The translations under genes and the position numbers were made by a program. A stretch of DNA of 64,000 nt from a virus, in the IMG/VR virus record IMGVR_UViG_3300009103_000003, positions 64,001-128,000 of that record. The stretch is one strand, 5' to 3'. Below the pieces are notes generated by a model, which was not told the origin of the DNA, ran no database searches, and worked only from the letters and a program-made list of their open reading frames with translations. Positions 6,219 to 41,151 of this stretch are shown here, piece by piece. Every line of letters starts with the position of its first letter. Positions within the stretch are counted from its first letter, which is position 1.

Positions 6219-7217
6219 ATGAAAGAATTACCAGCAGTTCTGGACCATTACGATGATGGAGGCTTGCTTCTTCGGAAAGAATTTAGTGAGCGTGGTGTCC
6301 CGAATATCATAAAAGTTGCCGCCGATATGTCTAACGCGCACTCTCGCCAAGAGAGTGATTACGCCCTTGTTGTAGACACTCCTCGCGGTAAAGCGCATAA
6401 ATTACCGATTATTGATGCTGGAAATGCATTGGCTTCTGCGATGTATTTCTCGGAGCATGGCAACACTTTGCCGCATGACCTTCAAAAGGAGGCCGCCCAA
6501 AAACTAAGCGACGCTTTAGTTTCTTTTGGGTTCACTCCCCCTGAAGATCTGACCAAGACTGCCGCTATGGAGCTTGGTTATAGCGGGGAGGCCGAGGACC
6601 AGAGCCTTGAGTCTCTTTTTGGGGTATCTAAGGACAATCAGTGGGAGGTCGTCAAAGACGCTTTTGACTCCTGCTCTCCTCGCGGGAAGCGCCGACTAAT
6701 GCTTCAGGTCAAAGAGGCCGGGGTGTTCAATGGTCTGTTCTCCGATGAGATGGAAGATTACGGTCGCGCCGAACTGGGTTCTGACTTTAGGGTTGGGATC
6801 GACACTAGGAGACTGGCAGTCATGGAGGGCGATGGTATCGCTGAATTAGAAGCTATTTTGGTGAAGTCTGCTTCCGCAGATCCCGAACAATTGGCTGTAG
6901 ATTTAGCTGACTTCGATATCCGGCATAGTATTACGCATATGTATAACGGGGTAATACTAGACCCCTATCAAACGGTTTACGGTACAACCGTAGAAAAAAC
7001 CGCATCTAGTGTACAACCGCTTGAAATTGGTGGTCGTGAGTATGCACCAAGTGATATTGTCTCTTGGGCAGAAGACGGCGGGTCTGATCGACTGGTCGAT
7101 TCTTTTGGTGAGACATTCGCACAGGAGTTTACTTCTGACCCCGTAGCAGTGTTAGATAGTCTACCTGTTACCCATAAACAAGCGATTGCACGGATGATTG
7201 ATGAGCCTAACCGCTGA
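6219..7217 (+). CDS. Putative virion/prohead protein with K-x-A motifs
   Basis: IIKVAAD, LTKTAAM, LVKSASA, VEKTASS; first gene of the morphogenesis block. ATG 6219 follows GGGAGAG. Confidence 0.65.
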   Translation: MKELPAVLDHYDDGGLLLRKEFSERGVPNIIKVAADMSNAHSRQESDYALVVDTPRGKAHKLPIIDAGNALASAMYFSEHGNTLPHDLQKEAAQKLSDALVSFGFTPPEDLTKTAAMELGYSGEAEDQSLESLFGVSKDNQWEVVKDAFDSCSPRGKRRLMLQVKEAGVFNGLFSDEMEDYGRAELGSDFRVGIDTRRLAVMEGDGIAELEAILVKSASADPEQLAVDLADFDIRHSITHMYNGVILDPYQTVYGTTVEKTASSVQPLEIGGREYAPSDIVSWAEDGGSDRLVDSFGETFAQEFTSDPVAVLDSLPVTHKQAIARMIDEPNR

Positions 7218-7869
7218 ACAGCCGATACCAGATAATGGTCCACAGACACCTAGGCAGGCGTTCACGAATCGTCAAACGCACCCCCTTGTTCTCAATCTTA
7301 TGCTCCTCAAGGAGTTTGGTAGTGACTACCTAGGGTGGGAGCCGGAAACTTGCTGGCTTGAGATTAGTAGGACCTGGGGGACTACGATCTCCGAGATCAA
7401 TAAGAATAAAATCCAGGCCATCCGGACTTGCCATGTCACAGATGACCCATACGAAAGGTGGGAAGTGTTTGAGTTGGTTTCCACGGGGCTCATGGGGCTT
7501 CCTCCCAAGTTTGACTTGGTCCAGCGACCCACCCCTCATAGGGCGGCGTTTGCGTTAGATGTCTTAGGACAGGTTCGAGAGAGTAAGCTACCAAACGCAG
7601 AGGTGTATAAGTATGTTGCCGCAGTGTTAATGGATAATGGGGTTATGTATGGGCCGGGACCACTAGAGCCCTGCAATCAATACCTTACAAAGTTCGTTGA
7701 CTCTGGTAAGCAGGCCAATATTAAGCGGGCGGTATCTTTGCGTAAGAGGCCGACATTTAACGGCAAGAATGAGGATGATACACAAATTATGAAATCAACA
7801 TCTATAAAAGATTTCTTGGAATCAACCTCAAGAACATTATTAGTGCAGCTAAAGAAGCTGTTGCCGTAG
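7198..7869 (+). CDS. Hypothetical protein (223 aa)
   Basis: Coupled ORF just before the portal gene. Confidence 0.7.
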   Translation: MMSLTAEQPIPDNGPQTPRQAFTNRQTHPLVLNLMLLKEFGSDYLGWEPETCWLEISRTWGTTISEINKNKIQAIRTCHVTDDPYERWEVFELVSTGLMGLPPKFDLVQRPTPHRAAFALDVLGQVRESKLPNAEVYKYVAAVLMDNGVMYGPGPLEPCNQYLTKFVDSGKQANIKRAVSLRKRPTFNGKNEDDTQIMKSTSIKDFLESTSRTLLVQLKKLLP

Positions 7870-7879
7870 GGGTGGATAA

Positions 7880-9892
7880 ATGGATTATGGTTCTCAACGA
7901 TACGGTCTAAGTTCTTCAGGCGCACGCGCTAAATCGGTTGGGCGACCTGAGTCATTTTACCCCAGCCCCTTTTTTGATGTTGCCAAAAACTACATCCCCA
8001 AAACCATTAAAGAGTGTTTTGACTGGTGTCATTACTATCAATTAACAAACCCTCTTGTTAATGCAGTAACTCAGAAGTTGGCCACCTATCCAATCACGGA
8101 CTTGGTGTACGAGGATGACAATGAGGGTGTTACCAAGATCTATAAAGACTTGTTTGAGAAGCAGTTTCTCATGCGGTCTTTTCTTATCGAAATCAATTTA
8201 GATAGGTACACATACGGGAACTCGTTTATCTCTGTAGCGTTCCCGTTCACCAAGCTCCTCAAATGCTCTAACTGTGGCCATGAATCCCCAGCAAGAAGTT
8301 CTGGATACAAATGGAAAGGATTCAAGTTCCATTTGGATTGCAAAGAGTGCGCCCATTACGGACCAGCCAAGGCCACTGACGAGCCCCTTAAGTCACCAAG
8401 GCAGATTAGACTTATTCGGTGGAACCCAAAGCATATTACCATAAAATATAATGAGATCACTGGGCGGTATCTCTACTACTACACCATGCCTAGAACGCTC
8501 AGGAATGACATCACCTTGGGTAAGCCGGATGTCTTAGAGACAATCCCGCAGGCGTTCATTGACGCCATTAGGAAAAAGAAGTCCATACTCTTGGACAACG
8601 ATAAAATTTTCCACACCAGAAGACCCTCTATTTCGAGAGAGCCCTCAGATAGTGGGTGGGGCGCACCGCTGATACTTCCCGTCCTGAAGGACATCTTCTT
8701 TCTTCAGGTGCTCAGAAAAGCCCAGGAAGCTGTGGCGATGGAGCACGTTGTTCCTATGCGAGTGATGTTCCCCCAAATCACTACGGATGGGAACAACCCT
8801 TATGCCCAAATTAATATGAAGGACTGGCAGAAAGAGGTGCAGGTCCAAATTAAACGCTGGCGGCAAGACAACAACCATATTCCGGTTATGCCTCTACCAA
8901 TTGGGTACCAGATGATTGGGGGGCAGGGCAGGTCCCTGCTGCTACACCAAGAGTTACGAATTTACTCCGATCAAATCATCGCTGGTATGGGCGTCCCAAC
9001 TGGGTTCTTTTATGGCGAAGCCCAGTACTCTGGGGCCTCGGTAAATCTAAGAGCCTTAGAAAACGAATTTCTCGGTAACCGACAAGACATGCTCAGATGC
9101 GTGGAGTTTGTCCGTGACCGCGTTGCGCATTTCTTAAACCTCCCCCAGATTGAGCTTAAGTTCAAGCCCTTCAAGATGGCGGATGATATTCAGAGGGCCA
9201 GCTTTGATATGAACTTGGCTAACGCTGGGATGATTAGCCGAAGAACCTTCTTACAGTCTCGTGATTTCAATTTTGATAATGAGCAAGAACTCATGTCCAA
9301 AGAAAATGAAATGATGGGACGTTCGCAAAGGGAGCAGCAGATTAGGCAGACCGAATCTCAGGGAGAAGCCATGCTTATTCAGACTCGATACCAAATAGAG
9401 TCTCAGAATATGCAGCAGGAAAATCAGGCGCAAATGCAGCAGCAGTATGGGCCCCCTCCCGGTGAAGAAGGGCAACAGCAGGGGCAGGGACAGCCGCAAC
9501 AGCAGGGGCAACCACAAGAGCAACAGGGTGGTGAGCAACAACCCCAAGGCGCTGAGGCACAGCAACAGGGCGCTGCCCCGGAGCAACAGGGTGAACAACC
9601 GCCACCGGAGCAACAGGGTGCTGGTGAAGTGGTTCAAGGTGCAGCACAAAGCCCTCTACAGGCAAACCAAAGCCCGATGGTGGACTTGTTTGCGCAAGCC
9701 AAGCGCCTCACCTCTGAGTTAAAAAAGATGAATGAGGTAGATAGGTACCGGGCGCTGGCACAGATTCGTGCCAGCAACCCGGATTTGTATATGTTGGTGA
9801 ACAACGCTCTGTCAGGTCAAGGCGTTCAGCCTATGCGACCATTACCAGAGAAATTACCACCAAGATCAGGACCGGGCAGTGCACAGATTTAA
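7880..9892 (+). CDS. Portal protein with Zn-ribbon insertion and Q/G/P-rich C-terminal region
   Basis: Size, NPLVNAVTQKLATYPI, IEINLDRYTYGNSF, IRLIRWNPKHI and GWGAPLILPVL resemble portal segments; CSNC...CKEC insertion. Confidence 0.72.
   Translation: MDYGSQRYGLSSSGARAKSVGRPESFYPSPFFDVAKNYIPKTIKECFDWCHYYQLTNPLVNAVTQKLATYPITDLVYEDDNEGVTKIYKDLFEKQFLMRSFLIEINLDRYTYGNSFISVAFPFTKLLKCSNCGHESPARSSGYKWKGFKFHLDCKECAHYGPAKATDEPLKSPRQIRLIRWNPKHITIKYNEITGRYLYYYTMPRTLRNDITLGKPDVLETIPQAFIDAIRKKKSILLDNDKIFHTRRPSISREPSDSGWGAPLILPVLKDIFFLQVLRKAQEAVAMEHVVPMRVMFPQITTDGNNPYAQINMKDWQKEVQVQIKRWRQDNNHIPVMPLPIGYQMIGGQGRSLLLHQELRIYSDQIIAGMGVPTGFFYGEAQYSGASVNLRALENEFLGNRQDMLRCVEFVRDRVAHFLNLPQIELKFKPFKMADDIQRASFDMNLANAGMISRRTFLQSRDFNFDNEQELMSKENEMMGRSQREQQIRQTESQGEAMLIQTRYQIESQNMQQENQAQMQQQYGPPPGEEGQQQGQGQPQQQGQPQEQQGGEQQPQGAEAQQQGAAPEQQGEQPPPEQQGAGEVVQGAAQSPLQANQSPMVDLFAQAKRLTSELKKMNEVDRYRALAQIRASNPDLYMLVNNALSGQGVQPMRPLPEKLPPRSGPGSAQI
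9421..9640 (+). repeat. Coding low-complexity Gln/Gly/Pro repeat in the portal
   Basis: Recurrent GAGCAACAGGGT (EQQG) units. Confidence 0.85.
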
Positions 9893-10107: not shown

Positions 10108-10110
10108 AAG

Positions 10111-10248: not shown

Positions 10249-10288
10249 AATGAACTCCTTTTGTTATGGGGCCCTATTGCCCAATGTT

Positions 10289-10329: not shown

Positions 10330-13300
10330 ATGTCGAATGTTTTAGATCCCCAGAGGGTGATGAAGACCCTCGAAGACGGGACGATAAACGAAATCAAAAA
10401 GTTTTTTCCTTTGGTTGGGAAGAAACATACGCTGATCGCCAAGGATGTCTATATTGGCGACCCAGTAGACATTGATGACGTTTCTAGTCAGAAAAAAGCA
10501 AGGCTTCGTGGGAGAACCTGGGCGCAGGGTGTCTTCGCAGACTTTAGTTTAGTCAACAACGAAACCGGCAAAGTAATTAGCACTGCTAATAAGCTAAAGG
10601 TTCTTAACCTACCAAAAATAACGCGAAGGTACAGCTACATTGTAGATGGTACCGAATACCAAGCAGACAACCAGTGGCGACTCAAGTCGGGCGTATATGC
10701 TCGTCGCAAAGCCAATGGCGATCTAGAATCCCAATTCAACCTAGCCCAAGGGCGCGGATTTAGACTAGGATTTGACCCCAAAAAGCGGCGATTCCTTATG
10801 TCCTACGGGACCTCCAACATCCAGCTTCTTCCGGTATTGCAAGCGCTCGGCGTCAAAGACGAAGACATACAAGCTGCCTGGGGTAACGAGCTATATACCG
10901 CTTCACTGGCCTCAAAAAAGCGGGGAGAGCTTGTGAAGCTTTCCAAGGCATTGGATAAGAAAGCTGGAGCAACGAACGACTCAGAGGCTGTGCCGGTAAT
11001 ACAAGCAGCCCTTAAAGAAACAAAACTTCTACCAGAAACAACTGCGATAACTCTCGGAGCCCCCCATACAACAGTTTCTGGTGATGCTCTGTTGGCGTCC
11101 TCCACAAAACTCCTAAACATAAACAAGGGAACCGAACAAGTCGATAACCGAGACGCGCTCCAGTTTAAGGAGCTTTGGGCCATTAACGACCATATCCCGG
11201 AACGAATCGAGAACTCAAAGCGTCGCATCACTTACAAGATGATGAACAATCTCGACCGTAAGGATAATGTGAGGGGGATTGTTACTGGGGACATTTTCAA
11301 TGTACCTATCAAGGCATTTTTTACCTCCACTTCCCTGTCCCAGCAGTCCTCCCAGGTTAACCCTGTAGATATGGTTGGGGGCTTCCTGAGAACCACAATT
11401 ATGGGGACCGGAGGCATTCAAAGCGACTCTGCTATCTCTGAGGAAGCTAAGCTGATTGATTCCAGCTTTCTCGGGTTTATTGATCCGGTGCACACCCCAG
11501 AAGGAAAGCGCTCCGGGATTAGTGGCCATCTTTCGCTAGGCGTACGTAAAAAGGGTACCGTCCCGCTTATCAAGGTATTCGACGTAAAGGCCGGTAAGTA
11601 CGCAGATAAATCACCATCAGAACTAACTTTGGGTAACGTAGCTTTCCCGGACCAATACGAGTTTACCAAAGGTAAATCTCCGAGGCCTATTGGGGACACC
11701 GCCACCGTTATCCCTTCCGGGGGAGGGGACCCGAGCAGGGTTGCATCATCTGACGTGGACTACATTCTTCAGTCTCCGAAACAGATGTTTTCCATCACAG
11801 CTAACCTTGTTCCCTTCCTCCCTTCGGATCAGGCAAACCGGGCAGGTATGGCAACCCGCCATATCGAACAGGCAATCTCCCTAACCAAAGCCGAAGAACC
11901 GCTGGTACAGGTTATCTCAGGCAACCCCAGTGAAAGATATGCTACCTGGGAAAAGATTGTGGGTGAGTTCTTCTCCCACCCCGCACCAGTAAGTGGTTTT
12001 GTTGACTCTGTCTCCAGTTCAAAGATTGTCGTAAAAAACAAGGACGGCAAGAAGCACGAAGTGCAGCTATATGACAACTTCCCGCTAAACGACAAGAAGG
12101 CGTATATTAGCAGTAATGCCTTAGTTAAGAAGGGGGACAAGGTATCTGAGGGGCAGATCATTGCGGACACGAACTTCACCAAGGGCGGAACGCTATCCCT
12201 AGGAACCAACCTGCTTATTGGCTATCTGCCTTACAAGGGGCTGGTTTTTGAGGACGGTATCGTCATCAGTGAGTCTGCGTCAAAAAAACTAACAAGCTCC
12301 CACTTACATAAAGAACGTTCATATGTAGATAAGAATATGGTGGTTGGGCTCAAGAAGTTTAGGGCTAATTACCCAGGCTCCATCTCCGAAGAAAACGCCA
12401 GCAAGCTTGACGCAGATGGGGTTATCAAAAAGGGGCAGACAGTTGACCCTGGGGACACCATCACCACGGTCCTTCAAAAAACAGAACCCTCAAAAGAACA
12501 GCTTCTTCTGAAGGGAATCCATAAGTCCCTTGTTAGGCCGTATAAAAACAAGTCCCTTGTTTGGGACAAACCTTACAGGGGCGAAGTCACCGACGTGGTT
12601 CGCAACGGGCGTGAGATTGTGGTCTATGTCAAGACCGAGGAGCCCGCAGACATTGGGGATAAGCTATCCGGAAGGCACGGCAATAAAGGGGTTATTACCG
12701 CAGTAATACCGGACGAAGAAATGCCGAAAGACTCGGAGGGTAACGCTCTACAGATAATCGTGAACCCGTCAGGGGTTCCGGGAAGAATCAATCCGGGGCA
12801 GGTCCTTGAGACTGCTTTGGGGAATGTTGCCCATAAAAACGGCGAGCCCTACGCAGTGGAGAACTTCCAATCAGATGACCGTAAGAAGGTTGTTCGCGTA
12901 AAGGCTCACACACGGACTATCCAAACAAAGTCTGGGCCTAAGACCGTAGAGGTTAAGGAACATGAACGAGAACTTGGTTACCGGGATGTTGTTGACGCTG
13001 CCCTAAAAAGCGCGAAGGTATCTGAGACAAGAGAATTGTTCGACCCACAGACAGGGAAAAGCCTCGGCTCCGTGCTCGTGGGACATCAGTATGTCCTCAA
13101 GCTAATGCACCAAGTAGACAAAAAGCTGAGTGCTCGTTCCCACGGATATGGGCATGATTACGACGCCAACCTAGTCCCAAAAAGCGGGGGGAAGTCTGGC
13201 GGTGCCCAAAGATTCGGTGAGCTTGGGCTCTACGCAATGTTGGCACACGGAGCCACGGCAAACATCCGAGACGCGTTAACATATAAAGGGGATAAGCAGC

Positions 13301-16300
13301 AGGACGAGGTTTGGACAGCAGTCCAGACTGGGGCTATTTTACCAACCCCTAAACCATCCTTTGCGTACGAAAAGTTTCTCGCCTACATGAATGCGTTAGG
13401 GCTAAATGTTGAAAAAGACGGCAATGGCCTAATCGTCTCACCACTTACAGACAAACAGATCAAGAGTATGTCTAACGGTGAAATAAAAGACGGAAGCCGA
13501 GTCATTCGTGGGAAGGACCTCAAGCCTGAGAAAGGTGGCCTATTTGATGAAACGATCACGGGCGGTCCCGGAGGCAAGAACTGGGCACATATCGCTCTCG
13601 CAGAGTCGCTCCCAAACCCTGTTTTCGAGAAAGGAATCCGCTCAGTTTTAGGGATAACCGGTAAAGAATATGATGCTGTAATAGCAGGTAAGTCCGGGTT
13701 CAATGCTGAGGGAGAGTTGGTGCCAGCCGGGGACGGCGTACTTACTGGGCCCGCTGCAATGGCCGCTCGACTAAAAAGTATCGACGTAGAGAGCGAACTA
13801 GCCTCAGCAAAAGAGGCGATAAAGACAGTCAGGCGAAATGACCTGGATAAGGTCAACAAGAAGATCAAGTATTGCCTGATGCTTCAAAAGAACAAAATCA
13901 GCCCACAAGAGGCATACGTTATTGATAACGTCCCGCTTCTTCCTCCGCTATTTCGACCCATCACAGCTATGGAGGGGGGAGACCTAAATATTGATGGTGT
14001 GAATATGCTCTATAGAGACATCGCACTGCTCAATAAGAAGCTGAAGGAGGCCCAAGGAGTCTTGCCAGAAGAAGCAATAATGAAACTTCGGGAAGATCTA
14101 TACTCCGCAACAGAAGCACTGATGGGCGTTCAGACCATGACTCAGGGAGGGCTGACGACAGACGGTCAACCCAGACCTCCTGGGATTCTGCATATCCTAG
14201 CTGGTAGATCCTCACCTAAGCAGAGCTACTTTCTACAAAGACTGGTAGACCGGAGACAAGACATAAGTATGCGTTCGGTCATTGTCCCTGACATGAACCT
14301 GCACTTAGATGAACTGGGTCTGCCTAGAAAAGGGGCGATGAAGATCTTCCGACCATTTGTGGTTCGGGAACTTGTTAAGATGGGGTACACACCCCTAAAA
14401 GCCAGGACTGAAGTAGAGAAGAACACAAGCCTAGCAAACAAGGCGCTGGACATTGCGGTTGAGAAGCGGCCCGTTATGTTCAAGCGAGATCCCGTTCTGC
14501 ACAAGTTTGGGATTATGGCGTTCAAGGCACGCCTTCATGACGAGTCAGCAATCCATATTCACCCACTTGTTGTTGGTGGGTTCAATGCTGATTTTGATGG
14601 AGACACGATGGCAGTGTTTGTCCCTGTATCGCAAGAAGCAGTGGATGAGTCATATAAGATGATGCCATCAAAGAACCTGTTTAACCCGGCTACCGGGCAC
14701 GTGATGTACCAACCAACTCTTGAGGGACAGTTGGGACTTTACCTCCTCTCTCGATGGGGGAAGAAGTCATCTAAGGCATTCAAGAACTCGAAAGAGGCCA
14801 TTGCTGACGCCAAAGAAGGAAACATCAGCATGACTGATGTCATCCAGGTAGGTGACATTAAAACAACTGCGGGAAGATTATTATTCAATAATATGCTCCC
14901 AAAGAAAGTCCAATCCGATAAATTCCTCACAGACCCGAAAGCTATCGTTGATAAGAAAACCCTTCAGGGGGTTCTTAGGGATGTGGCCACCAAAACCCCG
15001 CAAGAATTCGCGCAAACAGCGGATAGGGTCAAAGACCTTGGTTTTGGCCACGCATACAACATCGGGTTCTCGTTCGCTCTTTCAGACTTCGCACCTTTGC
15101 GGGACATTCGCGAAAAGCACATGACCCTCGCAAAAAAGAAAGAGGCGGTTATTCGAAAGCAGTTATCGATGAAGATGTTGTCCAAAGAAGCTGCCAACGA
15201 TAAAATTGTAAAACTATATGAATCCGCAGATTCGGCCATGACCGCTGATGCTACTGCTTTACTAGATAAGGGCGGGAACAAGCTTAAGCTTATGGAGGCT
15301 GCGGGGGTTAAGCCCTCATGGTCACAGCTTAAACAAATGATCATGGCACCGATGCTAGTTGAAAACGCGCAGGGAAGGGTCATACCTGTTCCCGTGACTA
15401 GCTCCTATTCAGAGGGGCTGAAGTCCTCGGACTACTGGGTAACTACATCGGGCGCTCGTGCGGGCCTTATCAAAAAGGTCCAGTCCGTTCAGAAGCCTGG
15501 GGCGCTTAATAAGCAGATCGCTAATACAACAATATCATACGTAATAAACAATGATGACTGTGGGACTGGGAAGGGGATATCCTTACCGGTATTTGATTCA
15601 GATTTAGTTGACCGGTTTACCGCGAAATCGATTTCAACCGCAGGATTGAAGGTATCTTCCGGGACTCTTATCACCCCTAATCTTCTCTCTAAAATGAAGG
15701 CGTCCAAGGTGGACAGGGTGGTTGTCAGGTCCCCTCTTAAGTGTGAGCAGTCCAAGGGGCTGTGTTCCAAGTGTTACGGTATTACCGATAATGGGGCTCC
15801 CATAGCTAAGGGAACCAATATCGGATTAATTGCCGGGACGTCAATTGGTGAACGTGGGACACAACTTTCTATGAAGGCTTTCCATACTGGCGGTGTAGCT
15901 GGGGGAGGAAGCTCGGTTGTTGGTGGTATTGACCGGGTCTCACAATTGCTGAAGATGCCTGCACTATTGGCTGGCTCTGCGACACTGTCTCCGGTTTCTG
16001 GAGAGGTGACCTCCGTAACAAAGAGTGAGATTGGTGGCCACGATGTGGTTATCGGCAACCAAGAGGCGTACATCCCCGGCAATCTATCGGTTTCCGTAAA
16101 GAAGGGCGAGAAGGTACGCAGAGGTCAACAAATTTCTAGTGGGGTCATTAACCCGCACGATCTTCTTGAGAAGACAAACATTGAGACAGTTCAGCGGTAT
16201 CTTGCGGATGAGATTCACAAGGTCTACGCGAAAGAGGGCATCAAGAAGAGAAACGTTGAGGTGGTAACAAAGGCTTTAACGAATCTGGGCAGGGTAATGG

Positions 16301-17963: not shown

Positions 17964-18448
17964 TGCCTTTAGCCACAACAGCCATAACAATGGACTCAAA
18001 GGTCCAAGACATAGTTAATGGGCTTCCCCAATCAGAAGAGGAACTCCAAAGCTGGAATGCCGCAGAGGAATGGGGCGAGGTAGCTGAGGCGTTTTTTGCT
18101 GGTGGGGTGTCCCCTGCGTGGACACCTGCGGGCCTTGCTCTAGGAAAGGCGGCTTGGATCGCCACCGCCTTAGGGGTTATGGCCTCCCCACAAGAAATGT
18201 CTGCGGCGGCGATGGAGGCCGCTTTTCCTGTGTTTGCGGCACTAGCTGCTGTTCCCGGTAATGTGCTTCCACCCATTCCCGCAATACAAGCGCCACCGGC
18301 AGCGCCACTGAGCTTGGCACCTTTGGCAGCATTACCACCATCAGAATCTACACTGCCTTCAACAACTGCTCTTCACGGTATATTATTAGCTTGGGCCATA
18401 ACTGGCACACAAACAATTCCACCGGCATCACCAGTGCCTTGGTCTTAA
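17963..18448 (+). CDS. Ala/Pro-rich hypothetical structural protein
   Basis: Coupled (TAATG) to the spike-like gene. Confidence 0.6.
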   Translation: MPLATTAITMDSKVQDIVNGLPQSEEELQSWNAAEEWGEVAEAFFAGGVSPAWTPAGLALGKAAWIATALGVMASPQEMSAAAMEAAFPVFAALAAVPGNVLPPIPAIQAPPAAPLSLAPLAALPPSESTLPSTTALHGILLAWAITGTQTIPPASPVPWS

Positions 18449-18459
18449 GGGGTAAAAAA

Positions 18460-30459: not shown

Positions 30460-30461
30460 TA

Positions 30462-31752: not shown

Positions 31753-33438
31753 ATGCTGAAGCTACTTACATTTCCTGGGTCAGATGACGAAGGAAATATC
31801 TTTGTTCAGGCGATTAACCCGTCTGACAGTTTGGTTAAGGTTGCGTCTCATGACGCGCTCCACCCAGAAATTCAATCTTACATAGGTGGGCTTAAGTCCA
31901 TGGACACTCACCTATATGTTTTGGTTAATGCCCTAGGGGCTGGTGAGTATTACGGCAGTAATATTAATGGGGATTTCTTCGAAGAGAAGGAGCTGAACCC
32001 AACAGAGAGCAATACTGGCTTCGGACACCAAACTTTTTTAAATGCTGGGATCTACAGACACCATAAAAACAAGGACATTAACCGGTCTTTAGGGCAAATT
32101 TGTCACGCGGTGTATAACCCTGTGATGCATAGGGTGGAATTGATCTTAAAGATTTGCCGCGAAAAAGCAGAGTTAGAGGGGTCCGGAGATCTCGTAAGAA
32201 GGCTGGACGCCGGTGAGAACCCAGCCGTGAGCATGGGATGTAGAGTCAAGTATGATGTCTGCTCCATTTGTGGTCACAAGTCTAAAACTAGGGCTGACTA
32301 CTGCCACCATACGAAAACAATGATGGGGAAAGTGTTCCCAGATGGCAGAAAGGTTTTCGTGTATAACCCAAACCCCAAGTTCTTTGACTTGAGCTTTGTT
32401 GTTATTGGTGCTGATAGAACTAGTTATGCGATGGCTAAGGTTGCCTCTATCCACGGTTCTTCATCTGCCTTGGCAGCAGAGGAAGCAGGCATTCGGGATG
32501 GGAGCGCGGTCAATTTGCTAAAAGAGAAAATGGCCGCTAAGAATAAAATCTCTAATATGTTAAAAGAGGTTCCGGCCATGTCTGCTAGGGTTATGCCCCG
32601 CGTCACTCAAAGCGAGCCAGACCTTTCTCGAAATGTTTTATCTAGGATGGCATGTTGCCCTGTGGCCAATGCGCTAACAACTTCCGCTTCCGCAGGTATT
32701 GTGCTAAAGCCCCGCGAGTACCAGAGAATTATTCTGATTCGGATAGGGAAAAAACCGTTGGCAGACAGACTGGATAATGCTGGCTGCACATTTTCACCCT
32801 CTAATGATGTAGACAGGAGTGTTAGGATAGGCGCACCTAACCAGTTTTCGTCATCTATTAGAGATATGCTTATGGACATTATTCCCAAGCGTAGTATGTT
32901 CGATCCAGTTATTACGAAGAGGATCACGATTATTAGACGCCCAAGTACTTCCACAGACCAACTAAGTCCTAGTATTCTAGGTCTGCGTAAAGAAGGTAGT
33001 ATTGGAAGTATTGATATTAGTCCTGACGAAATGGAGCTTCTTAATAGAATCTCCGCAGGATACAATGGTTATCGCGAGCAGCTAATGGAGAAAATAGGAA
33101 CCATTGTTGCTCATATTACAAGTAATGATATAGGATTGCTCTCGACCATTAATGGTCAAAGACTGGAAGATGAATTCATGTTGGAACCACAACTAACAAA
33201 AACAGCTAAGCTGCCTTTAGCGTTGGTTGGTGTTCTTCCCATGGCTTATCTTTACGGTGCGCACGTAAAATCTAAAAGACGGCGTACCCATCAGTCCACA
33301 GGCCCACTTGATCGGTTTATCGAGAAACATCCAATCTTAGCCACTTCGGTGTTTGTAGGCCTTACCCGTTTGGGTATGAACCTAAAAACGTCTGGGGCGT
33401 TCAACAAGTCGTTGAACAACCTAGCGGCTAAGTTTTAG
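31753..33438 (+). CDS. Prohead maturation protease (HK97/assemblin-like, clan SH) with C-terminal extension
   Basis: Putative catalytic His (RHHKNKD) and Ser (AVSMGC), followed by DVCSICG..YCHH; position before the scaffold and capsid genes. Confidence 0.8.
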   Translation: MLKLLTFPGSDDEGNIFVQAINPSDSLVKVASHDALHPEIQSYIGGLKSMDTHLYVLVNALGAGEYYGSNINGDFFEEKELNPTESNTGFGHQTFLNAGIYRHHKNKDINRSLGQICHAVYNPVMHRVELILKICREKAELEGSGDLVRRLDAGENPAVSMGCRVKYDVCSICGHKSKTRADYCHHTKTMMGKVFPDGRKVFVYNPNPKFFDLSFVVIGADRTSYAMAKVASIHGSSSALAAEEAGIRDGSAVNLLKEKMAAKNKISNMLKEVPAMSARVMPRVTQSEPDLSRNVLSRMACCPVANALTTSASAGIVLKPREYQRIILIRIGKKPLADRLDNAGCTFSPSNDVDRSVRIGAPNQFSSSIRDMLMDIIPKRSMFDPVITKRITIIRRPSTSTDQLSPSILGLRKEGSIGSIDISPDEMELLNRISAGYNGYREQLMEKIGTIVAHITSNDIGLLSTINGQRLEDEFMLEPQLTKTAKLPLALVGVLPMAYLYGAHVKSKRRRTHQSTGPLDRFIEKHPILATSVFVGLTRLGMNLKTSGAFNKSLNNLAAKF

Positions 33439-33530: not shown

Positions 33531-34139
33531 ATGAACGAACTGCTAGCACAAGCGTACGGTACCCAGGGAAACATTGACACCAATTCAGGCGTCGAGAAGA
33601 CCGCTGAGGCCGCTTTAATTGACGAACTCGAAAAGGTTGCACAGGCCGAAGGCATCGACCTTAATGAGTTCAGTGACGATGATATCCTCGAAATCCTTGG
33701 CGAAGCCATGGGTGGTGAGGGTGTCGAGAAAACCGCAGGCGTAGAAGCTGCGGGCGAAGATGAGGACACCCAGGTTAAGCTTGCAGAAGCTGACTTCCTT
33801 GGTCGAACCATGGCGCACGCTTTCTACGACGAACTTACCGGCATTCAGCATGGTGGCACCGAGAAGACCGCAAGTGGTCGTCCCAGTGACGCTTTCCTGA
33901 AGACCGCTTCTGACGAAGAAGCTGGAACCGTTGATCCTGAGTTTGCCCAAGCTTTCGAAGAAACCGCTATTGAGCGTGCCAACGAAATTCTTGAGTTCTT
34001 GGACACCGGCTCCGTTAAGCAGTCTTCGGCAGCAATTGATGACGAGCAGCTTGACGCTGACGTGACTGAGCGTGCGGGACAGCTTCTCGCTGAGGCTGGT
34101 TACGATGTTGATGCAATTGCCCAAGCGTTGCAGGGGTAA
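33531..34139 (+). CDS. Acidic scaffold-like protein with repeated K-x-A motifs
   Basis: VEKTAE, LEKVAQ, VEKTAG, VKLAE, TEKTAS, LKTAS, VKQSS; strong SD AAGGAG. Confidence 0.7.
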   Translation: MNELLAQAYGTQGNIDTNSGVEKTAEAALIDELEKVAQAEGIDLNEFSDDDILEILGEAMGGEGVEKTAGVEAAGEDEDTQVKLAEADFLGRTMAHAFYDELTGIQHGGTEKTASGRPSDAFLKTASDEEAGTVDPEFAQAFEETAIERANEILEFLDTGSVKQSSAAIDDEQLDADVTERAGQLLAEAGYDVDAIAQALQG

Positions 34140-34380: not shown

Positions 34381-35232
34381 ATGTCTTCACTAAATAAACT
34401 GATTGAAAAACTTGCTGGGTCTAACTCATCTACCGTGGCCGAGACCGATGAATCTGCACCTATCGCGCAGAATGCTACTGATCCGGTGTATGTAGAGAAG
34501 TTAGCTTCAGCAGTAGATTTTATTGTTGATAATATTGATACAACTTTTACTGAAGAACTCAGTCAGAAAGACAAAGTATCAATTATTAAAGAGGCTATTG
34601 CCCGTGACCCGGTAACAGGGCGTTTTGTTTCTGATGGAAACCCGACTTTAACTGTTCCCGAGCAGGTGGCCGAAGAGGCCCCGCCAGAGGAGCCCGAAAG
34701 TAATGTCACAGACATTACTGGTAAGCTACGAGATCGACTAAGAGCACGAATTACCGCAAAACAAGAGGCGGTAGCTGAGGAAGATCAAAAAATGGAGGAC
34801 TCTAAGGAGGAGAAACAAGAACTCCTACAGAGTGTTCTAGGAAAACTTAAAGAGCTTAAATCTGATAAGTCCGATCAATCTGATGCGGATACCCCAGAGG
34901 ACAGCGAGAACTTCTATAGCGGTTCTTCTGACGACCCTGTGTCTGAGGAAGAAATTTTTAACGTCGGTTCAACCGCGACTGACGACACGGAGAATTCAAC
35001 GGACGATAATAGTGACGTTGACGGCGAGATGGCGGTAAAGGCAGCTTCGGCTGGCCAAAGTCTTGCTGAGGTGCTGAATGCAGCACTTAGCTCTGATGGA
35101 CAATTTGACGAGAGTGCCTCAACAGGTGCAGAGACCGGCGATGTTCACGGTAGCGAAGGGCCCATGGCTCGTAAACAAGCCACCGACAGCCTGAAAAGGA
35201 AGTTGTTGGCTAAGATTGGTAAGGAGGCATAA
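34381..35232 (+). CDS. Acidic scaffold-like protein
   Basis: IEKLAG, VEKLAS, VKAAS; coiled coil; D/E/S-rich. Confidence 0.65.
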   Translation: MSSLNKLIEKLAGSNSSTVAETDESAPIAQNATDPVYVEKLASAVDFIVDNIDTTFTEELSQKDKVSIIKEAIARDPVTGRFVSDGNPTLTVPEQVAEEAPPEEPESNVTDITGKLRDRLRARITAKQEAVAEEDQKMEDSKEEKQELLQSVLGKLKELKSDKSDQSDADTPEDSENFYSGSSDDPVSEEEIFNVGSTATDDTENSTDDNSDVDGEMAVKAASAGQSLAEVLNAALSSDGQFDESASTGAETGDVHGSEGPMARKQATDSLKRKLLAKIGKEA

Positions 35233-35234
35233 TC

Positions 35235-35585
35235 ATGAGTTCAATTGATAAAAACTCAGCCCAGGAAGTCCTGAAGCAGGTCCCGCAAACTTTGCGGAAG
35301 CTTGTGGAGGAAAATACCAAACTTGCGTCTGCTCTTGAGGAGTACCGTAAGCGGGAAGAGGCGGAAGAAGTTGTGGCCATGATGGATGCTCGTGGTTTCT
35401 CGGATCGCACAGTTCCTTTAAAGACGAAGGTGGCAGCATTGCTGGCTTCTAAGAAGGATTTGAACGTGGTCAAGGAAGCTCTTGCTCTTTCCCCACCCGA
35501 TCTGTCGTTTGCATCTGTTTCCGATTTGCCCGGTGATGGTGCAGTGAGCGCTTTCGAGAACTTTCTTCTCGGAAGTAATGAGTAA
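35235..35585 (+). CDS. Small coiled-coil head assembly protein
   Basis: Position in the capsid operon; helical. Confidence 0.55.
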   Translation: MSSIDKNSAQEVLKQVPQTLRKLVEENTKLASALEEYRKREEAEEVVAMMDARGFSDRTVPLKTKVAALLASKKDLNVVKEALALSPPDLSFASVSDLPGDGAVSAFENFLLGSNE

Positions 35586-36214: not shown

Positions 36215-37420
36215 ATGTCTAGCGTACCTAGCGAAGTCCTCAACGAGCTTTTTGTCTCTAAGCTCGATACTGAGGCCGGAAAAGAAAAGATTGCTGCTCT
36301 TGGCGGTGATTTTATTAGAGACCGTCTGCGTGAGGAGAGCTTTGCTCGCAAGGTCCTCCCCCCGAAGACCGTCAGTCGTTCGGACCTCCAGGTCAGCGTC
36401 AATCACGATACCCTCGTGAAGGTCGTTGAAGTGGAGCCACAAAGCCGAGCCATGAGTATGTCATTCCGGGCACAGCCCACGGTGAGATACTACACTGGTC
36501 CGCGCTTTGAGGTACCGTTTCATACGGTTGGTTCGCAGCGTTATGAGCAAACTGAGCAGGAGCTTATGGCCTACGTGATGCCAATCACGGAGATCATCAA
36601 GCGTAACATTGTTAACGATATCCAAGAGATTGAGGACCGCGTGTTCTTGACTCACATGGAATCGGCCTGCCAGTCGTTACAGCAAGATGCACAGGGCCTC
36701 GCGTTCGGTGCTGCATACAACAACAGTGGTGCAACTGTTTTCTCGGCACGTAATGTGCTCGTGAACGGCATCCCTGAAGTTGGTAAGGTCAAAGGCGTAG
36801 ATGCCGCTGCCCTTACGGTTGCTGCAAACGATGTTGCTGGCGCTGACGAAGCCCTCGTCTTCCCTGTTCAGAAGGATGACTTTATTAAGTTGTTCCAGAC
36901 GTTCACAGGCGGCGGTGCTCGTGGCTCTCGACTGCGGTGTGATCAGTTCCTCATGACTGACACTGACTTCGAGGACCTGAATGCTTGGGCACATGCGGAT
37001 ATGGGAGATAAGATTGTTGGCGAGACTACTGTCGATGGATACAAGTACAAAACGGTTATTGGCCGTAAGTTCATTCGTACCCTGAAGACGGACATTCTTC
37101 GTCCTGGCAATATTTATGCTTTCACCGCACCCGAGTATTTGGGTGGCTTCCTTGTTCTCAACAAGACTAAGTTCTACGCCGATAAGGAACGGAACCGAAT
37201 CTCGTTTGAGGCTTGGGAAGACATTGGTATGTATGTCGGAAACGTGGCTGGTGTTCGTAAGCTTGAGCTTTACACTGGTTCCGTCGAGACTATTGCCGGT
37301 GGTGGTGCAACTAACGCGGTGACGCGTGCTGCACGTCTTCCTGTTGCGGAAGCTGACATGGGCGGGCGTAACCACCTCGTTAACGAGGGGCAAACGTTCC
37401 CTGCTGTAGCGCAGTTCTAG
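36215..37420 (+). CDS. Major capsid protein (HK97 fold)
   Basis: Size and position, strong SD AAAGGAGG, downstream terminator, HK97-like pattern (NDIQEIEDRVFL...FEAWEDIGMYVGN); N-terminal KEKIAA. Confidence 0.85.
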   Translation: MSSVPSEVLNELFVSKLDTEAGKEKIAALGGDFIRDRLREESFARKVLPPKTVSRSDLQVSVNHDTLVKVVEVEPQSRAMSMSFRAQPTVRYYTGPRFEVPFHTVGSQRYEQTEQELMAYVMPITEIIKRNIVNDIQEIEDRVFLTHMESACQSLQQDAQGLAFGAAYNNSGATVFSARNVLVNGIPEVGKVKGVDAAALTVAANDVAGADEALVFPVQKDDFIKLFQTFTGGGARGSRLRCDQFLMTDTDFEDLNAWAHADMGDKIVGETTVDGYKYKTVIGRKFIRTLKTDILRPGNIYAFTAPEYLGGFLVLNKTKFYADKERNRISFEAWEDIGMYVGNVAGVRKLELYTGSVETIAGGGATNAVTRAARLPVAEADMGGRNHLVNEGQTFPAVAQF

Positions 37421-39427: not shown

Positions 39428-40630
39428 ATGGACCCGTTTGAAAAGTTACTACAGCAAGAAACAGACACGGATGAAAAGTTCGCTGCTGCCGCAGACTTCT
39501 TCACTGAGTTGAAGACGGCTGGCGTGAAGGTCCGACACAACGCCCAAAACAAGCAGCAGTCGAAGAAGGTTCGCTCGGAGTCCCGAGATAAAATTAGGCA
39601 GCTACTAGCGAGCCAGAAAGCTACTTCGGTAAAACTTCCCGTTCAGAAAGCACCTGCTTCCGCTAAGGCCGTAAAGCCTGTATCCCTCTCTGGTCAGGCA
39701 AGAACACCAGTTCGGGCTCCCTCAAAGAGCAAGGGCTACAAAGAAGTTTCTGTAAAAGACCAAAAGGTTCCGGACAAGAAGATTGCGGTACTCCCCGCTC
39801 TGAAGAAGAAGGTGAAGACCTCCTCCGTAACAAAGTCTGATCAAGCCGCTATTCTCACCAATGCCCTACTAGAAAAACAGGCGTTCTACCCATTCAGCGC
39901 AGCCGCTAGAGCCGCTAAGGGTGCTGTTGGTGCGGGGACCAAGGCACACGCTGTTGGCTCTGCTGCCGCAGAGGGAGCAAAGCTCGGACTCAAGCCCCAG
40001 GCATCTCGGTGGAGTCAAATAGGCGAAGCATTGAAAGGCGCGGGAAGCAAGATTGTCCCACAGCCCGTAAAAGACGTTGGTGGGGCTATTGCTAGGAAAT
40101 ACCGATCTGGCGCTACTAAATGGCAAAACTTTTGGGACCCAGGTTTAGCGGGAGCCCGGAAGCAGGGCCAAGGATATATTGACGATTTTATTGCTCAGCA
40201 GGGTTCTAGGGCCGCAGCAGCCAAGAAAAGTCCTGAAGCGCTCAAGGCTTGGGATGATGCTATGGCGGTGGCTGAGGGCAAACGGAACACTCTTGTTAAG
40301 GCCTTTGAAAAATCAAGAAGTATGAATCGAACTACAGGTCTTGGAAGCACGGCTTCTGAGATCATGACCGCAGTAAAAGGCGCAGACGGAAAGATCTCCC
40401 CCTCTAGCATATATAAGGGTCTGGAGAATCTCGGGCTTACTAGCCCGGAACAACTATTGGGTATGGGCATGGGTGCTGCTGGAGCCATTAAGGCTACACG
40501 CGCTTCTCGTGCCGCAGCAAAAGCACACAATCGGAATATGCTTATCGGTGGTGGTGCCGCTGGCCTTGGTGCATTAGCACTACTTAAGGGAAGAAAAAAC
40601 AGCGGTGACGCACAAGTCGTTATCCGGTAA
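39428..40630 (+). CDS. Basic Ala/Lys/Gly-rich putative internal virion protein
   Basis: DEKFAAA, ELKTAG, VKTSS, LEKQAF; C-terminal LIGGGAAGLGALALL. Confidence 0.6.
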   Translation: MDPFEKLLQQETDTDEKFAAAADFFTELKTAGVKVRHNAQNKQQSKKVRSESRDKIRQLLASQKATSVKLPVQKAPASAKAVKPVSLSGQARTPVRAPSKSKGYKEVSVKDQKVPDKKIAVLPALKKKVKTSSVTKSDQAAILTNALLEKQAFYPFSAAARAAKGAVGAGTKAHAVGSAAAEGAKLGLKPQASRWSQIGEALKGAGSKIVPQPVKDVGGAIARKYRSGATKWQNFWDPGLAGARKQGQGYIDDFIAQQGSRAAAAKKSPEALKAWDDAMAVAEGKRNTLVKAFEKSRSMNRTTGLGSTASEIMTAVKGADGKISPSSIYKGLENLGLTSPEQLLGMGMGAAGAIKATRASRAAAKAHNRNMLIGGGAAGLGALALLKGRKNSGDAQVVIR

Positions 40631-40641
40631 TAGGGGTTATA

Positions 40642-41151
40642 ATGAACGCACTAGAAAAATATGCAGCCAAGAAAAAGCTTACCGAAAAGCTTGTTGAATT
40701 CATCGGAAAGGTTGGACCAAAACATAAGTCCGATGCCGCTGAACGTTTAGCGAAAGCTCAGAAGGCTGCGAAGAATCGACCTAAGGCCAACAAAGGCACT
40801 ACTTCGCAGAAGAAAAGAAAGAAGAAGATTATCGCTGGCCAGAACGAACGCGTAGAAAGCGCCAAGGCTGGTGTGAGTCAAGCAGCCAAAGATTCGTCTC
40901 GCGCACGTAAGCAGGTAGCTGGCGGGTTTGCTGGCTTGGCTGGTTTAGCTGGGCTAGGACTCGGAGCAAAAGCTCTCGGTAAGCGTTCTGCTGGAAAGAC
41001 AGCCATCAAAGGAACTCAGTCCGCTGCTAAGCGACTTGGGGACATGGCGCGTAAACACAAGAAGCCCCTCGCAGTTGGGGGTGGAGTCACAGGCGGTGCT
41101 GTAGCACTTAATCAAATTCTTAAGGATAAGAAGAGCAAGAAGGCGGCTTAA
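40642..41151 (+). CDS. Very basic putative internal virion protein
   Basis: MNALEKYAA; two Gly-rich hydrophobic segments. Confidence 0.6.
   Translation: MNALEKYAAKKKLTEKLVEFIGKVGPKHKSDAAERLAKAQKAAKNRPKANKGTTSQKKRKKKIIAGQNERVESAKAGVSQAAKDSSRARKQVAGGFAGLAGLAGLGLGAKALGKRSAGKTAIKGTQSAAKRLGDMARKHKKPLAVGGGVTGGAVALNQILKDKKSKKAA

Follow-up and report, generated by a model that had tools for sequence, protein, structure and literature searches.

A K-x-A motif in the head proteins of a marine phage, and its probable recognition by a prohead protease of the gp21 fold

Results and discussion

Genes of the head block and the distribution of K-x-A sites

The window analyzed here is a stretch of 64,000 nucleotides (positions 64,001 to 128,000 of the IMG/VR record IMGVR_UViG_3300009103_000003), which belongs to a 181-kb uncultured marine phage. 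The cultured relatives of this phage are the Salmonella phage Arash, an orphan myovirus (PMC10585845), and the Vibrio phages D69, D181 and D148; homologues of the portal, RNA polymerase, helicase, protease and capsid protein are common to them at 27-43% identity. Many proteins of the head block carry short sites whose conserved core, judged by sequence, is [L/M/I/V/F]-x-K-x-A, with the hydrophobic residue two positions N-terminal of the lysine. The residue after the alanine varies among orthologues (Ser more often than Ala, and also Thr, Gly, Asp, His, Lys or Gln), and Ser/Ala at this position is a preference only. The capsid protein and the proteins with several sites are the following; sites are named by their lysine, and a slash marks the bond predicted to be cut.

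6207..7217, plus strand: multi-site head protein, probably scaffold or core; sites at K36 (6306-6323), K94 (6480-6497), K117 (6549-6566), K169 (6705-6722) and K264 (6990-7007)
18391..20463, plus strand: multi-site head protein, 690 aa, likely start at the ATG at 18460; N-terminal site FEKTA/S (18493-18510) and a run of sites in residues 395-560
28766..29851, plus strand: multi-site head protein, homologue of Arash gp220 (BLAST); K48, K101, K137 and K186
33531..34139, plus strand: small acidic multi-site protein, scaffold candidate, adjoining the protease gene; K23, K35, K67, K112 and K124
34381..35232, plus strand: head protein with the N-terminal leader IEKLA/G (K10), and with VEKLA/S (K40) and AVKAA/S (K220)
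35235..35585, plus strand: small head protein; NTKLA/S (K29) and KTKVA/A (K65)
36215..37420, plus strand: major capsid protein of the HK97 fold (Foldseek matches to D3 and HK97 capsid proteins, E 1e-10 to 1e-11)
36281-36298, plus strand: candidate maturation site of the capsid protein, KEKIA/A (K25-A27)

The preliminary description of this DNA had proposed that the motif, with Ser or Ala after it, recurs in five scaffold-like proteins, and counts of K.A[AS] agree: five in 6207, eight in 18391, three in 28766 and two each in 33531 and 34381, the last two having respectively three and one further K.A sites. Across orthologues these sites persist within variable linkers, slide by one residue, or are duplicated, and the flanks of different sites are unrelated to each other. 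In 6207, which has no match in PHROG or Pfam, the K and A are present in all three orthologues (about 50% identity) and insertions adjoin the K264 site. The 18391 protein contains 16 K.A in all, and orthologues of 35-53% identity retain its sites at 37, 395, 459, 500 and 558 either in place or displaced by a single residue. The K-T-A at residues 101-103 of 28766 lies inside a variable linker and is found in 7 of 8 sequences (the window and 6 of 7 orthologues). All five sites of 33531 are kept across eight orthologues with variable spacing, one of them being duplicated in the related locus L002, and those of 34381 are kept in five to six of six orthologues. Both sites of 35235 are present in 6/6 orthologues; its flanks are conserved as well, and the conservation of K29 and K65 is therefore less informative.

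The capsid protein is homologous to gp226, the major capsid protein of Arash, and does contain the KEKIAA peptide reported in the preliminary description. Of 61 homologues, at least 90% retain K25 and A27, which are also found in the related loci L010 and L012, Arash and D69. The site lies in a generally well-conserved N-terminus, which is modeled as low-confidence helices ahead of the N-arm. Among the relatives the motif persists in linkers that vary in other respects, even where the capsid proteins are about 27% identical.

The prohead protease and the sites in its own chain

31753..33438, plus strand: prohead protease, 561 aa; T4 gp21-fold catalytic domain at about residues 1-221, then a long, mostly helical C-terminal part
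31831..31848, plus strand: site 1, LVKVA/S (K29-A31; predicted cut after A31); K and A kept in 59/60 homologues, flanks vary
32431..32448, plus strand: site 2, MAKVA/S (K229-A231; predicted cut after A231); K and A kept in 59/60
32521..32538, plus strand: site 3, KEKMA/A (K259-A261); K.A in 48/60, within the pLDDT<50 segment 253-264
33193..33210, plus strand: site 4, LTKTA/K (K483-A485); K.A in 42/60, within the pLDDT<50 segment 477-487

The protease matches the PHROG family phrog_18299 (head maturation protease, E 5e-9), its other matches there being families of unknown function at E of about 5e-9. It finds no Pfam family at E 0.01, and so is not placed in Peptidase_S77, and it has no match among PDB sequences at E 1. 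Its AlphaFold2 model aligns over residues 1-221 with T4 gp21 (5jbl; Foldseek probability 1.0, TM 0.67 normalised by target length), with a VIA Z of 11.6 and an rmsd of 2.8 Å over 149 of 164 residues, and with herpesvirus proteases at Z 4.5-5.2. On the strength of this model the protease has the T4 gp21 / herpesvirus assemblin fold, though its Z scores to the herpesvirus enzymes are low. All 60 homologues have H104 and S160 (the latter within S-M-G), and a CxxC...CxH cluster is likewise invariant. PHROG scans of the window revealed no second head-protease candidate.

The two peptides initially noticed in this protein, LVKVAS and AKVAS, are both present and correspond to sites 1 and 2. Conservation was assessed over 60 homologues of 38-79% identity. 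Site 1, which Arash gp222, D69 0270 and phage G gp19 have as well, lies within the pLDDT<50 segment 26-33, and a cut there would take off a 31-residue N-terminal propeptide. Site 2 lies within the pLDDT<50 segment 218-234 at the end of the catalytic domain; the structural alignments with gp21 and assemblin stop at residues 221-231. All four sites are thus in pLDDT<50 segments, i.e. predicted disordered linkers, which make up 17% of the chain.

Enrichment and specificity of the motif

An unbiased scan covering some 48,000 gapped tripeptides placed EK.A first in the head block (21 occurrences against 4.6 expected, p 2e-8), with K.AS in third and KTA in fifth place; the same scan of the remaining genome gave nothing comparable, the top pattern there being CP.C. 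The enrichment of head over other proteins that the preliminary description had predicted is also seen with composition-preserving shuffles: K.A[AS] occurs 37 times in the head block against 15.9 expected (z 5.5-5.7), as opposed to 45 against 33.3 outside it. The form [LMIVF].K.A occurs 45 times in the head block against 21.1 expected (z 5.0). Controls in the head block were not enriched (z -2.6 to 0.9), namely the reversed motif, substitutions of K by R and of A by G or S, and the altered spacings KA[SA] and K..A[SA]. Nor were the codes of known head proteases: T4-type [LI].E gave 103 against 90.4 expected (z 1.4), phiKZ-type [SAG].E z 1.2 and herpes-type [LIV].A[SA] z -0.7.

The flanks of the sites carry a further signal. 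A weight matrix trained only on the sites of the protease homologues, with the window's own sequence left out and K and A unscored, was positive at 28 of 100 K.A sites in the other head proteins, compared with 18 of 210 elsewhere (Fisher p 2.4e-5). About a third of the regular-expression matches are not kept by orthologues and represent chance (e.g. K15 of 21577, K7 of 16605 and K1619 of the RNA polymerase). Over all 33 matches the column conservation of the motif alanine exceeds that of other alanines (0.75 against 0.47, p 3e-5), whereas that of the motif lysine does not differ significantly from other lysines (0.60 against 0.54, p 0.17); the matches therefore combine genuine sites with chance occurrences.

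The head module of Arash gives the same picture independently. Its top patterns are EK.A (15 against 2.7 expected), KEA, M.K.A and L.K.A, none of which is enriched in the rest of the Arash genome. The Arash protease has its site at K30 and the capsid protein at K27, and K.A is abundant in gp220 (10 in 307 aa) and gp223 (8 in 255). K-x-A is also dense in the Vibrio phage D69.

N-terminal leaders

On a range of unrelated proteins the motif ends a leader of 8-30 residues. [LMIVF].K.A falls within the first 50 residues in 12 of 32 head-block genes (2.7 expected) and in 7 of 27 genes of a second virion block (2.0 expected), as opposed to 10 of 162 elsewhere (8.7 expected), and the leader enrichment is strong in the two virion gene blocks. 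None of the genes from 41152 onward has an N-terminal site. The leader-bearing genes that the preliminary description regarded as likely cargo are listed below.

23394..25163, plus strand: SNF2-type helicase with an 11-residue leader, candidate packaged enzyme (phrog_62 DNA helicase, E 9e-53); leader end LTKSA/E (residues 7-11) at 23412-23429
25308..26570, plus strand: 420-aa protein, leader ending in ELEKTA/A (25347-25364)
29851..30459, plus strand: small protein, 8-residue leader MNRFEKQA/A (29860-29877)
30450..31124, plus strand: small Gly-rich protein, leader ending in LIQKLA/A (30489-30506)
40642..41151, plus strand: small basic protein, 8-residue leader MNALEKYA/A (40651-40668); the last motif-bearing gene before the tail genes

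Every peptide quoted in the preliminary description was found in the sequence, and its cargo peptides LTKSA, ELEKTAA, FEKQAA, IQKLAA and LEKYAA map to these five genes in turn. A further one, LLKLAQ, is present but falls in a short, unconfirmed reading frame (about 25042-25305), which overlaps the 3' end of the helicase gene and has no orthologue in the fetched related loci. The helicase leader together with its K-x-A is kept in five orthologues, including that of L012 (55% identity), and a variable linker follows; the homologous Arash gp217 is abundant in virions (PMC10585845). For 25308 the motif is kept in the sole orthologue found. The kinase-like character first ascribed to this protein is a weak lead: its ESM Atlas structure neighbors are all Ser/Thr kinases, but at a TM of only 0.32-0.40, and it has no Pfam match. 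E-K-x-A is found in four of five orthologues of 29851, on leaders of differing length. The L002 and L009 orthologues of 30450 retain its site and that of L012 has it shifted; for the remaining orthologues the N-termini are uncertain. The leader of 40642 recurs, as MNSLEKYA/A, in a gene at genome position 179136.

Three further genes give the context.

7880..9892, plus strand: portal protein (32% identical to the Arash gp204 portal protein, E 2e-96)
10330..16605, plus strand: single-chain beta-beta' RNA polymerase, 2091 aa (PHROG RNA polymerase beta-subunit families)
27108..28763, plus strand: large terminase subunit (phrog_675, E 5e-72)

The portal has no site in a variable linker, its two K.A being fully conserved core sequence, and the terminase has no K.A[AS] site. 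The RNA polymerase, residues 7-1508 of which match Arash gp206, has no conserved K-x-A: its K.A are either lost in orthologues or within the conserved core. Homologues of this fused polymerase are the most abundant virion proteins of Arash (PMC10585845). With no conserved site in either the portal or the virion RNA polymerase, the motif cannot be a mark of every head protein, and the original suggestion that it identifies the proteins packaged in the head was overstated, the more so with about a third of simple matches attributable to chance.

Comparison with known head proteases

The proteases of T4, phiKZ and SPN3US cut at a P3-x-P1 motif and take off N-terminal propeptides; those of SPN3US and phiKZ also cut themselves and shed their own C-terminus (PMC5694885, PMC10052503). 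The code of phiKZ gp175 is S/A/G-x-E and that of SPN3US gp245 is A-x-E, with V at P4 and S at P1' (PMC5694885, PMC10052503). In both phages many head and ejection proteins, including partners of the virion RNA polymerase, are cut at such a short motif, a breadth comparable to that predicted here, and the Ser favored at P1' in SPN3US is also the preferred residue after the motif in the present phage. The difference lies in P1, which is Glu in those phages, where the cleavages were measured, and would be Ala here, where they are predicted.

Structurally, the protease resembles T4 gp21 (MEROPS S77) far better than it does assemblin. The catalytic pair of T4 gp21 is His85/Ser140, and the candidate His/Ser pair of the present enzyme is about 56 residues apart. 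Both systems have short N-terminal leaders that end in the cut motif, here a predicted one, as in the capsid-targeting sequence of IPI-III and Alt, and both would use a three-residue P3-x-P1 code. Self-processing, trimming of the capsid N-terminus and multi-site breakdown of core proteins, which we propose here, would be further points in common. However, the T4 code is (L/I)-x-E rather than K-x-A with a hydrophobic P5 preference; the present protease has a 330-residue C-terminal extension, the invariant CxxC...CxH cluster and no match to Pfam S77; and its leaders share the motif alone, in place of a fixed 10-residue sequence. Herpesvirus assemblin (MEROPS S21) has the related fold, and its (V/L/I)-x-A/S sites have Ala at P1 and Ser at P1'. 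In it, too, the protease domain precedes a long C-terminal part and a release-type site lies where the two meet, K229-A231 being the predicted counterpart. It is not, however, a sequence relative, the present protein is not classed as a member of its family, and the constrained positions here are Lys at P3 and the hydrophobic P5. A literature search recovered no K-x-A cutting rule for a head protease, and the Arash paper and records, in which gp222 is labelled just 'structural protein', mention neither a protease nor a cleavage motif (PMC10585845).

Proposed function of the motif and alternative explanations

We consider it likely that the K-x-A motif is the recognition site of the phage's own prohead protease, a putative serine protease, which would cut after Ala and remove leaders in the manner of T4. 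The preliminary description held that the protease cuts K-x-A before Ser or Ala; the indirect evidence all agrees with this, and the cutting itself and the exact bond, after Ala, are what we infer. Support for recognition comes from the specificity of the motif in direction, spacing and residue identity, from its persistence in variable linkers, from the location of the protease's sites (disordered linkers, one of them where the catalytic domain ends), from the transfer of its flank preferences to other head proteins, and from the gp21-type fold of the enzyme. Inside the prohead the protease would bind a site as an extended strand, with the hydrophobic P5, Lys P3 and Ala P1 facing the enzyme. 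It would trim itself by removing the N-terminal propeptide, splitting off the catalytic domain at 231/232 and making further cuts near 261 and 485, and would take 27 residues off the capsid protein. The putative core and scaffold proteins 6207, 18391, 28766, 33531 and 34381 would be chopped into pieces small enough to exit the shell. Leaders of 8-30 residues would be removed from internal proteins, such as the SNF2 helicase, the kinase-like protein and small Gly-rich basic proteins, and also from a sigma factor encoded elsewhere in the genome. By analogy with the T4 capsid-targeting sequence, the leaders may also load their proteins into the prohead.

An alternative is that the motif is never cut and acts only in capsid targeting, as an assembly or docking signal that binds the scaffold, the shell interior or the portal. 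Its N-terminal position on many unrelated head-block proteins would suit such a tag equally, and the sites of the capsid protein and 35235 are in conserved, possibly helical sequence. We nevertheless regard this as unlikely, given that the constrained residues at i, i+2 and i+4 point to an extended strand and not a helix, that the multi-site proteins hold 5 to 16 copies in variable linkers, and that one copy in the protease falls precisely on its domain boundary and three more occupy further disordered linkers. The targeting peptide of T4 reportedly coincides with the cleavage site, and a targeting role is therefore not exclusive of cleavage. The sites might also be cut by another protease of the host or phage, as the link of the 31753 enzyme to the motif is an indirect one, and the staphylococcal phage 80alpha does depend on a host protease. 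This is very improbable in our view: the motif travels with this protease family across hosts, from the uncultured marine phages to Salmonella phage Arash and Vibrio phage D69, it lies at the family's own domain boundaries in all but one of the homologues, and the window offers no other head-protease candidate in the PHROG scans.

A still slimmer chance attaches to the conserved lysine being a modification site, e.g. a target of the ubiquitin-like conjugation operon of this phage.

57455-60861: operon encoding a Ubl-E2-JAB-E1 set

The presence of these genes in the same genome, and a lysine preceded by a hydrophobic position, reminiscent of the psi-K-x-E consensus of the SUMO E2, would favor this. 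However, the motif is at full strength in Arash, in which a genome search run without a positive control found no E1 homologue at E 0.01; the Ala at +2, as invariant as the Lys, and the Ser/Ala preferred at +3 are what a protease with small S1 and S1' pockets would select; and sites lie at the protease's own domain boundaries. The least probable explanation is that the motif has no function and simply reflects helices rich in Lys, Ala and Glu, or paralogous repeats. Several carriers are indeed rich in these residues and a portion of the matches is not kept in orthologues, but the enrichment holds against shuffles that keep composition, it is absent for reversed or respaced motifs, one site's flanks are unrelated to another's, and sites stay fixed while the linkers around them vary. 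Moreover, Arash, with proteins about 27-40% identical, independently yields the same pattern at the top. The unbiased scan, this replication and the specificity controls largely refute such an origin.

Returning to recognition by the prohead protease, a wider reading would combine an undescribed branch of gp21-fold proteases with Ala at P1, leaders that act as a portable capsid-loading tag, and an injected takeover kit; as a whole we hold this to be possible, though somewhat doubtful. If true, K-x-A would be the shared specificity of a large branch that uses Ala instead of Glu at P1 and converges on the A/S rule of herpesviruses. Its members would be the ~180-kb marine phages, the Vibrio D69 group and Salmonella phage Arash; phage G and the Bixzunavirus mycobacteriophages may belong to it too. 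The leaders would then pack a transcription and takeover kit for injection, comprising the sigma factor, the SNF2 helicase, the kinase-like protein and the small basic proteins. The proteome of Arash virions, published as protein-level coverage with no peptide lists in the supplement, includes the helicase, the RNA polymerase and a sigma factor (PMC10585845). The RNA polymerase itself is encoded by two genes in Arash, in contrast to the single chain of the present phage.

Genomic setting of the head block

The window covers positions 64001-128000 of a complete virus record of 181,199 bp with direct terminal repeats (IMG/VR). The features considered here are as follows (window coordinates, with the basis of the gene assignments in brackets):

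6207 to about 41151, + strand, head block
7880-9892, + strand, portal (32% identity to the Arash portal gp204)
10330-16605, + strand, single-chain beta-beta' RNA polymerase (PHROG search)
23394-25163, + strand, SNF2-type helicase (PHROG search)
27108-28763, + strand, large terminase (PHROG search)
31753-33438, + strand, head-maturation protease (PHROG search)
36215-37420, + strand, HK97-fold major capsid protein (structure comparison)

Most other genes of the block matched no PHROG or Pfam family. Ten head proteins, including the protease and the capsid protein, have no Pfam family; the protease sequence found no match in the PDB, and the head region none by megablast against 50,697 phage records. 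Among cultured phages, the closest to this one are the orphan Salmonella myovirus Arash and the Vibrio phages D69, D181 and D148, with protein identities of 27-43%. The protease domain also matches gp19 of Bacillus phage G and a giant protein of cluster C mycobacteriophages. In the latter it forms the N-terminus of a 1408-residue protein (I3 gp103, at 8905-13131 of locus L031); I3 gp103 contains 18 K.A in total, with a K-H-A directly ahead of the catalytic domain. The window's RNA polymerase has beta and beta' joined in one chain of 2091 residues; residues 1-1508 correspond to Arash gp206, and the rest is presumably the counterpart of gp216, a separate Arash gene 5 kb away. Both gp206 and gp216 are abundant in Arash virions (PMC10585845).

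Enrichment of the K-x-A motif

The preliminary description had pointed to a recurrent K-x-A motif (K.A, where the dot is any residue) in head proteins, and every peptide that it quoted was found in the sequence. One of these, LLKLAQ, sits within a small ORF (25042-25305) that overlaps the 3' end of the helicase gene and encodes LESELLKLA/Q (the slash marking the predicted cut) along with several cysteines; this ORF is doubtful as a gene because it lacks an orthologue in the fetched loci. The motif is indeed enriched: the head block contains 37 K.A[AS] where shuffles that preserve composition predict 15.9 (z 5.5), and the rest of the genome contains 45 where 33.3 are predicted. When every gapped three-residue pattern (roughly 48,000) was scored, with none preselected, EK.A ranked first in the head block (21 versus 4.6 expected, p 2e-8), K.AS third and KTA fifth, while the zinc-finger-like CP.C ranked first in the rest of the genome.

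Enrichment of the fuller motif in the head block, and of its variants

[LMIVF].K.A: z 5.0
A.K.[LMIVF] (reversed): z -0.5
[SA]A.K (reversed): z 0.3
R.A[SA]: z -1.1
K.G[SA]: z -2.6
K.S[SA]: z 0.5
KA[SA]: z -0.5
K..A[SA]: z -0.8

The signal is specific for direction, spacing and residue identity. The T4-type [LI].E, the phiKZ/SPN3US-type [SAG].E and the herpes-type [LIV].A[SA] motifs are not enriched here, and the K-x-A code therefore differs from all three.

The same unbiased scan, applied to the head module of the whole Arash genome, again placed EK.A first (15 versus 2.7 expected, p 1.7e-7), followed by KEA, M.K.A and L.K.A; no such pattern emerged outside the head module. In the protease of Arash, gp222, the motif appears as GLTKQA (residue 30) and LEKVA (residue 218), and in the capsid protein, gp226, as GLVKEA (residue 27). 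Two Arash proteins carry many sites: gp220, 307 residues long, has 10, and gp223, 255 residues long, has 8. Vibrio phage D69 likewise encodes proteins with 11 sites in 311 residues and 10 in 269, and carries a residue-27 site in both its protease and its capsid protein. Phage G gp19 shows three K-x-A ahead of the catalytic domain, the phage G capsid protein shows none, and one K-x-A of mycobacteriophage I3 gp103 lies at residue 28. A wider reach of the code to phage G and I3 is, from these sequences, a lead only.

Conservation of individual sites

Orthologues for alignment came from eleven related loci surrounding the protease gene and, for the head genes upstream, from three relatives. The conserved core in these alignments is K-x-A plus a hydrophobic residue two positions ahead of the lysine. 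The position after the alanine is variable, with S/A commonest and T, G, D, H, K and Q also found. Many sites stay constant within linkers that change in sequence and length (28766 K101, 6207 K264 and all five of 33531; genes are named by start coordinate), the site 18391 K500 shifts by one residue among orthologues, and a site of 33531 is duplicated in the related locus L002. Other regular-expression matches are not conserved and are treated here as chance matches: 21577 K15, 16605 K7, RNA polymerase K1619, 6207 K150 and 6207 K220. Over the 33 [LMIVF].K.A matches with at least three orthologues, column conservation of the motif alanine was 0.75 versus 0.47 for other alanines (p 3e-5), and that of the motif lysine 0.60 versus 0.54 for other lysines, which is not significant (p 0.17). 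That the alanine but not the lysine is significantly better kept indicates that these matches mix real sites with chance ones. The orthologues of the 690-residue multi-site protein 18391-20463 have one in-frame TAA each in two relatives (L013 of genome G003 and L015 of G001), and are open in G002 and G004.

The protease and its own sites

More than 850 homologues of the protease were found in metagenomes. The protease itself has four sites. Of 60 homologues aligned (38-79% identity), 59 have K29/A31, 59 have K229/A231, 48 have K259/A261 and 42 have K483/A485, with variable flanks throughout. H104 and S160 are invariant in the same set. An AlphaFold2 model built on the alignment of the 60 homologues has pLDDT <50 in segments 26-33, 218-234, 253-264, 397-416, 477-487, 507-514 and 550-561; all four sites lie within such segments, which make up 17% of the chain. 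The N-terminal domain aligns with T4 gp21 (5jbl) over model residues 1-221 (Z 11.6, rmsd 2.8 A, 149 of 164 residues), and the alignments with herpesvirus proteases (Z 4.5-5.2) stop at residues 229-232. As these alignments end at 221 and 229-232, the second site coincides exactly with the end of the catalytic domain, a placement like that of a herpesvirus release site.

A weight matrix was derived from the four sites of 59 protease homologues only, excluding the window's sequence and leaving K and A unscored. It prefers L/M at P5, E/A/T/V at P4, V/T/L at P2, and S, then A, at P1' (the predicted cut follows the alanine, P1). Matrix-positive K.A sites number 28 of 100 in other head-block proteins versus 18 of 210 in the remaining proteins (Fisher p 2.4e-5). 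Constraint falls on every second position (P5, P3, P1), as would be expected if the substrate were bound in an extended and not in a helical form.

N-terminal leaders and candidate cargo

A [LMIVF].K.A match among the first 50 residues is seen in 12 head-block genes out of 32, where 2.7 would be expected. A second virion block (genome 1-25 kb and 174-181 kb) has 7 such genes out of 27, against 2.0 expected, and the 162 other genes include 10, against 8.7 expected. The SNF2 helicase begins with an 11-residue leader ending in LTKSA; five orthologues keep this leader, and the linker behind it is variable. Small proteins carry the eight-residue leaders MNALEKYA, MNSLEKYA and MNRFEKQA, which are nearly identical, and the sigma factor, encoded elsewhere in the genome, has FLKYA near its N-terminus. 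The preliminary description took the motif to identify the proteins packaged in the head. It does mark many head proteins but not all, since the RNA polymerase and the portal have no conserved linker site in the orthologue alignments. RNA polymerase subunits, a sigma factor and the helicase are abundant in Arash virions, though virion membership there is not clean because the sample also held many metabolic enzymes (PMC10585845).

The leader-bearing 25308-26570 product (420 residues) has only Ser/Thr protein kinases as structure neighbours in the ESM Atlas, at TM scores of only 0.32-0.40, and may be a packaged kinase-like enzyme. Two small proteins rich in Gly, Ala and Lys are encoded on the + strand at genome 10390-11300, some 53,600 bases ahead of the window, and their leaders end in VKLA and EKQA; they resemble window genes 29851, 30450 and 31131 and a gene at genome 179136. 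A naive longest-ORF caller selects the opposite strand in this region.

Proposed mechanism and alternatives

By analogy with T4, phiKZ and SPN3US (PMC5694885, PMC10052503), the most likely mechanism is one in which the protease would be built into the prohead and cut after the alanine of hydrophobic-x-K-x-A. It would thereby trim itself, take 27 residues off the capsid protein, degrade the multi-site core or scaffold proteins and strip the leaders from internal proteins; the leaders may double as loading tags.

The N-terminal position of the motif would equally fit a docking signal that is never cut, but multi-copy linkers and a site at the protease's own domain boundary suit such a signal poorly, and we consider it unlikely. 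Cleavage of these sites by a different protease is very improbable because the motif accompanies this protease family across hosts. Less probable again is that the motif lysine is a modification target of the phage's ubiquitin-like operon (57455-60861), a reading weakened by Arash, which carries the motif but yielded no E1 match in a search run without a positive control. A compositional artefact is the least probable and is largely excluded, as no enrichment is left when the motif is reversed, respaced or substituted; moreover EK.A came first in the unbiased scans of both head regions.

Systems of this kind are known. Cutting rules of prohead proteases have been measured for few phages, such as T4, phiKZ, 201phi2-1, SPN3US and HK97, and to our knowledge P1 is always Glu in the gp21-like enzymes among those with a measured rule. 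The K-x-A code is not among the recognition codes known to us, and an incomplete set of papers on the cleavage motifs of prohead proteases and on phage G, Arash and mycobacteriophage I3 contained no report of such a rule, an absence that is not proof. If true, the code would show that the specificity pocket of the gp21 fold can exchange Glu for Ala, as it does in herpesviruses. In a widespread family of marine phages of about 180 kb, the predicted rule would allow the mature ends of proteins to be read, and would single out scaffold and core proteins as well as candidates for injection. It is testable, as relatives are cultured and virion mass spectra exist for Salmonella phage Arash. Should the leaders act like the T4 targeting peptide, foreign proteins could be loaded into phage heads with a second tag, unrelated to the first.

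Other features of the protease family

The catalytic domain with the gp21 fold contains a CxxC...C cluster (C170, C173, C184; window 32260-32310) that is invariant in 60 of 60 homologues and, together with H186 (at least 90%), is probably a zinc site; we know of no equivalent in T4 gp21. Several metagenomic homologues (P0054, P0073, P0089, P0091, P0092 and P0107) reach 750-950 residues and contain intein or homing-endonuclease domains (PF14528, PF05203, PF13403), which points to repeated intein invasion of the protease gene.
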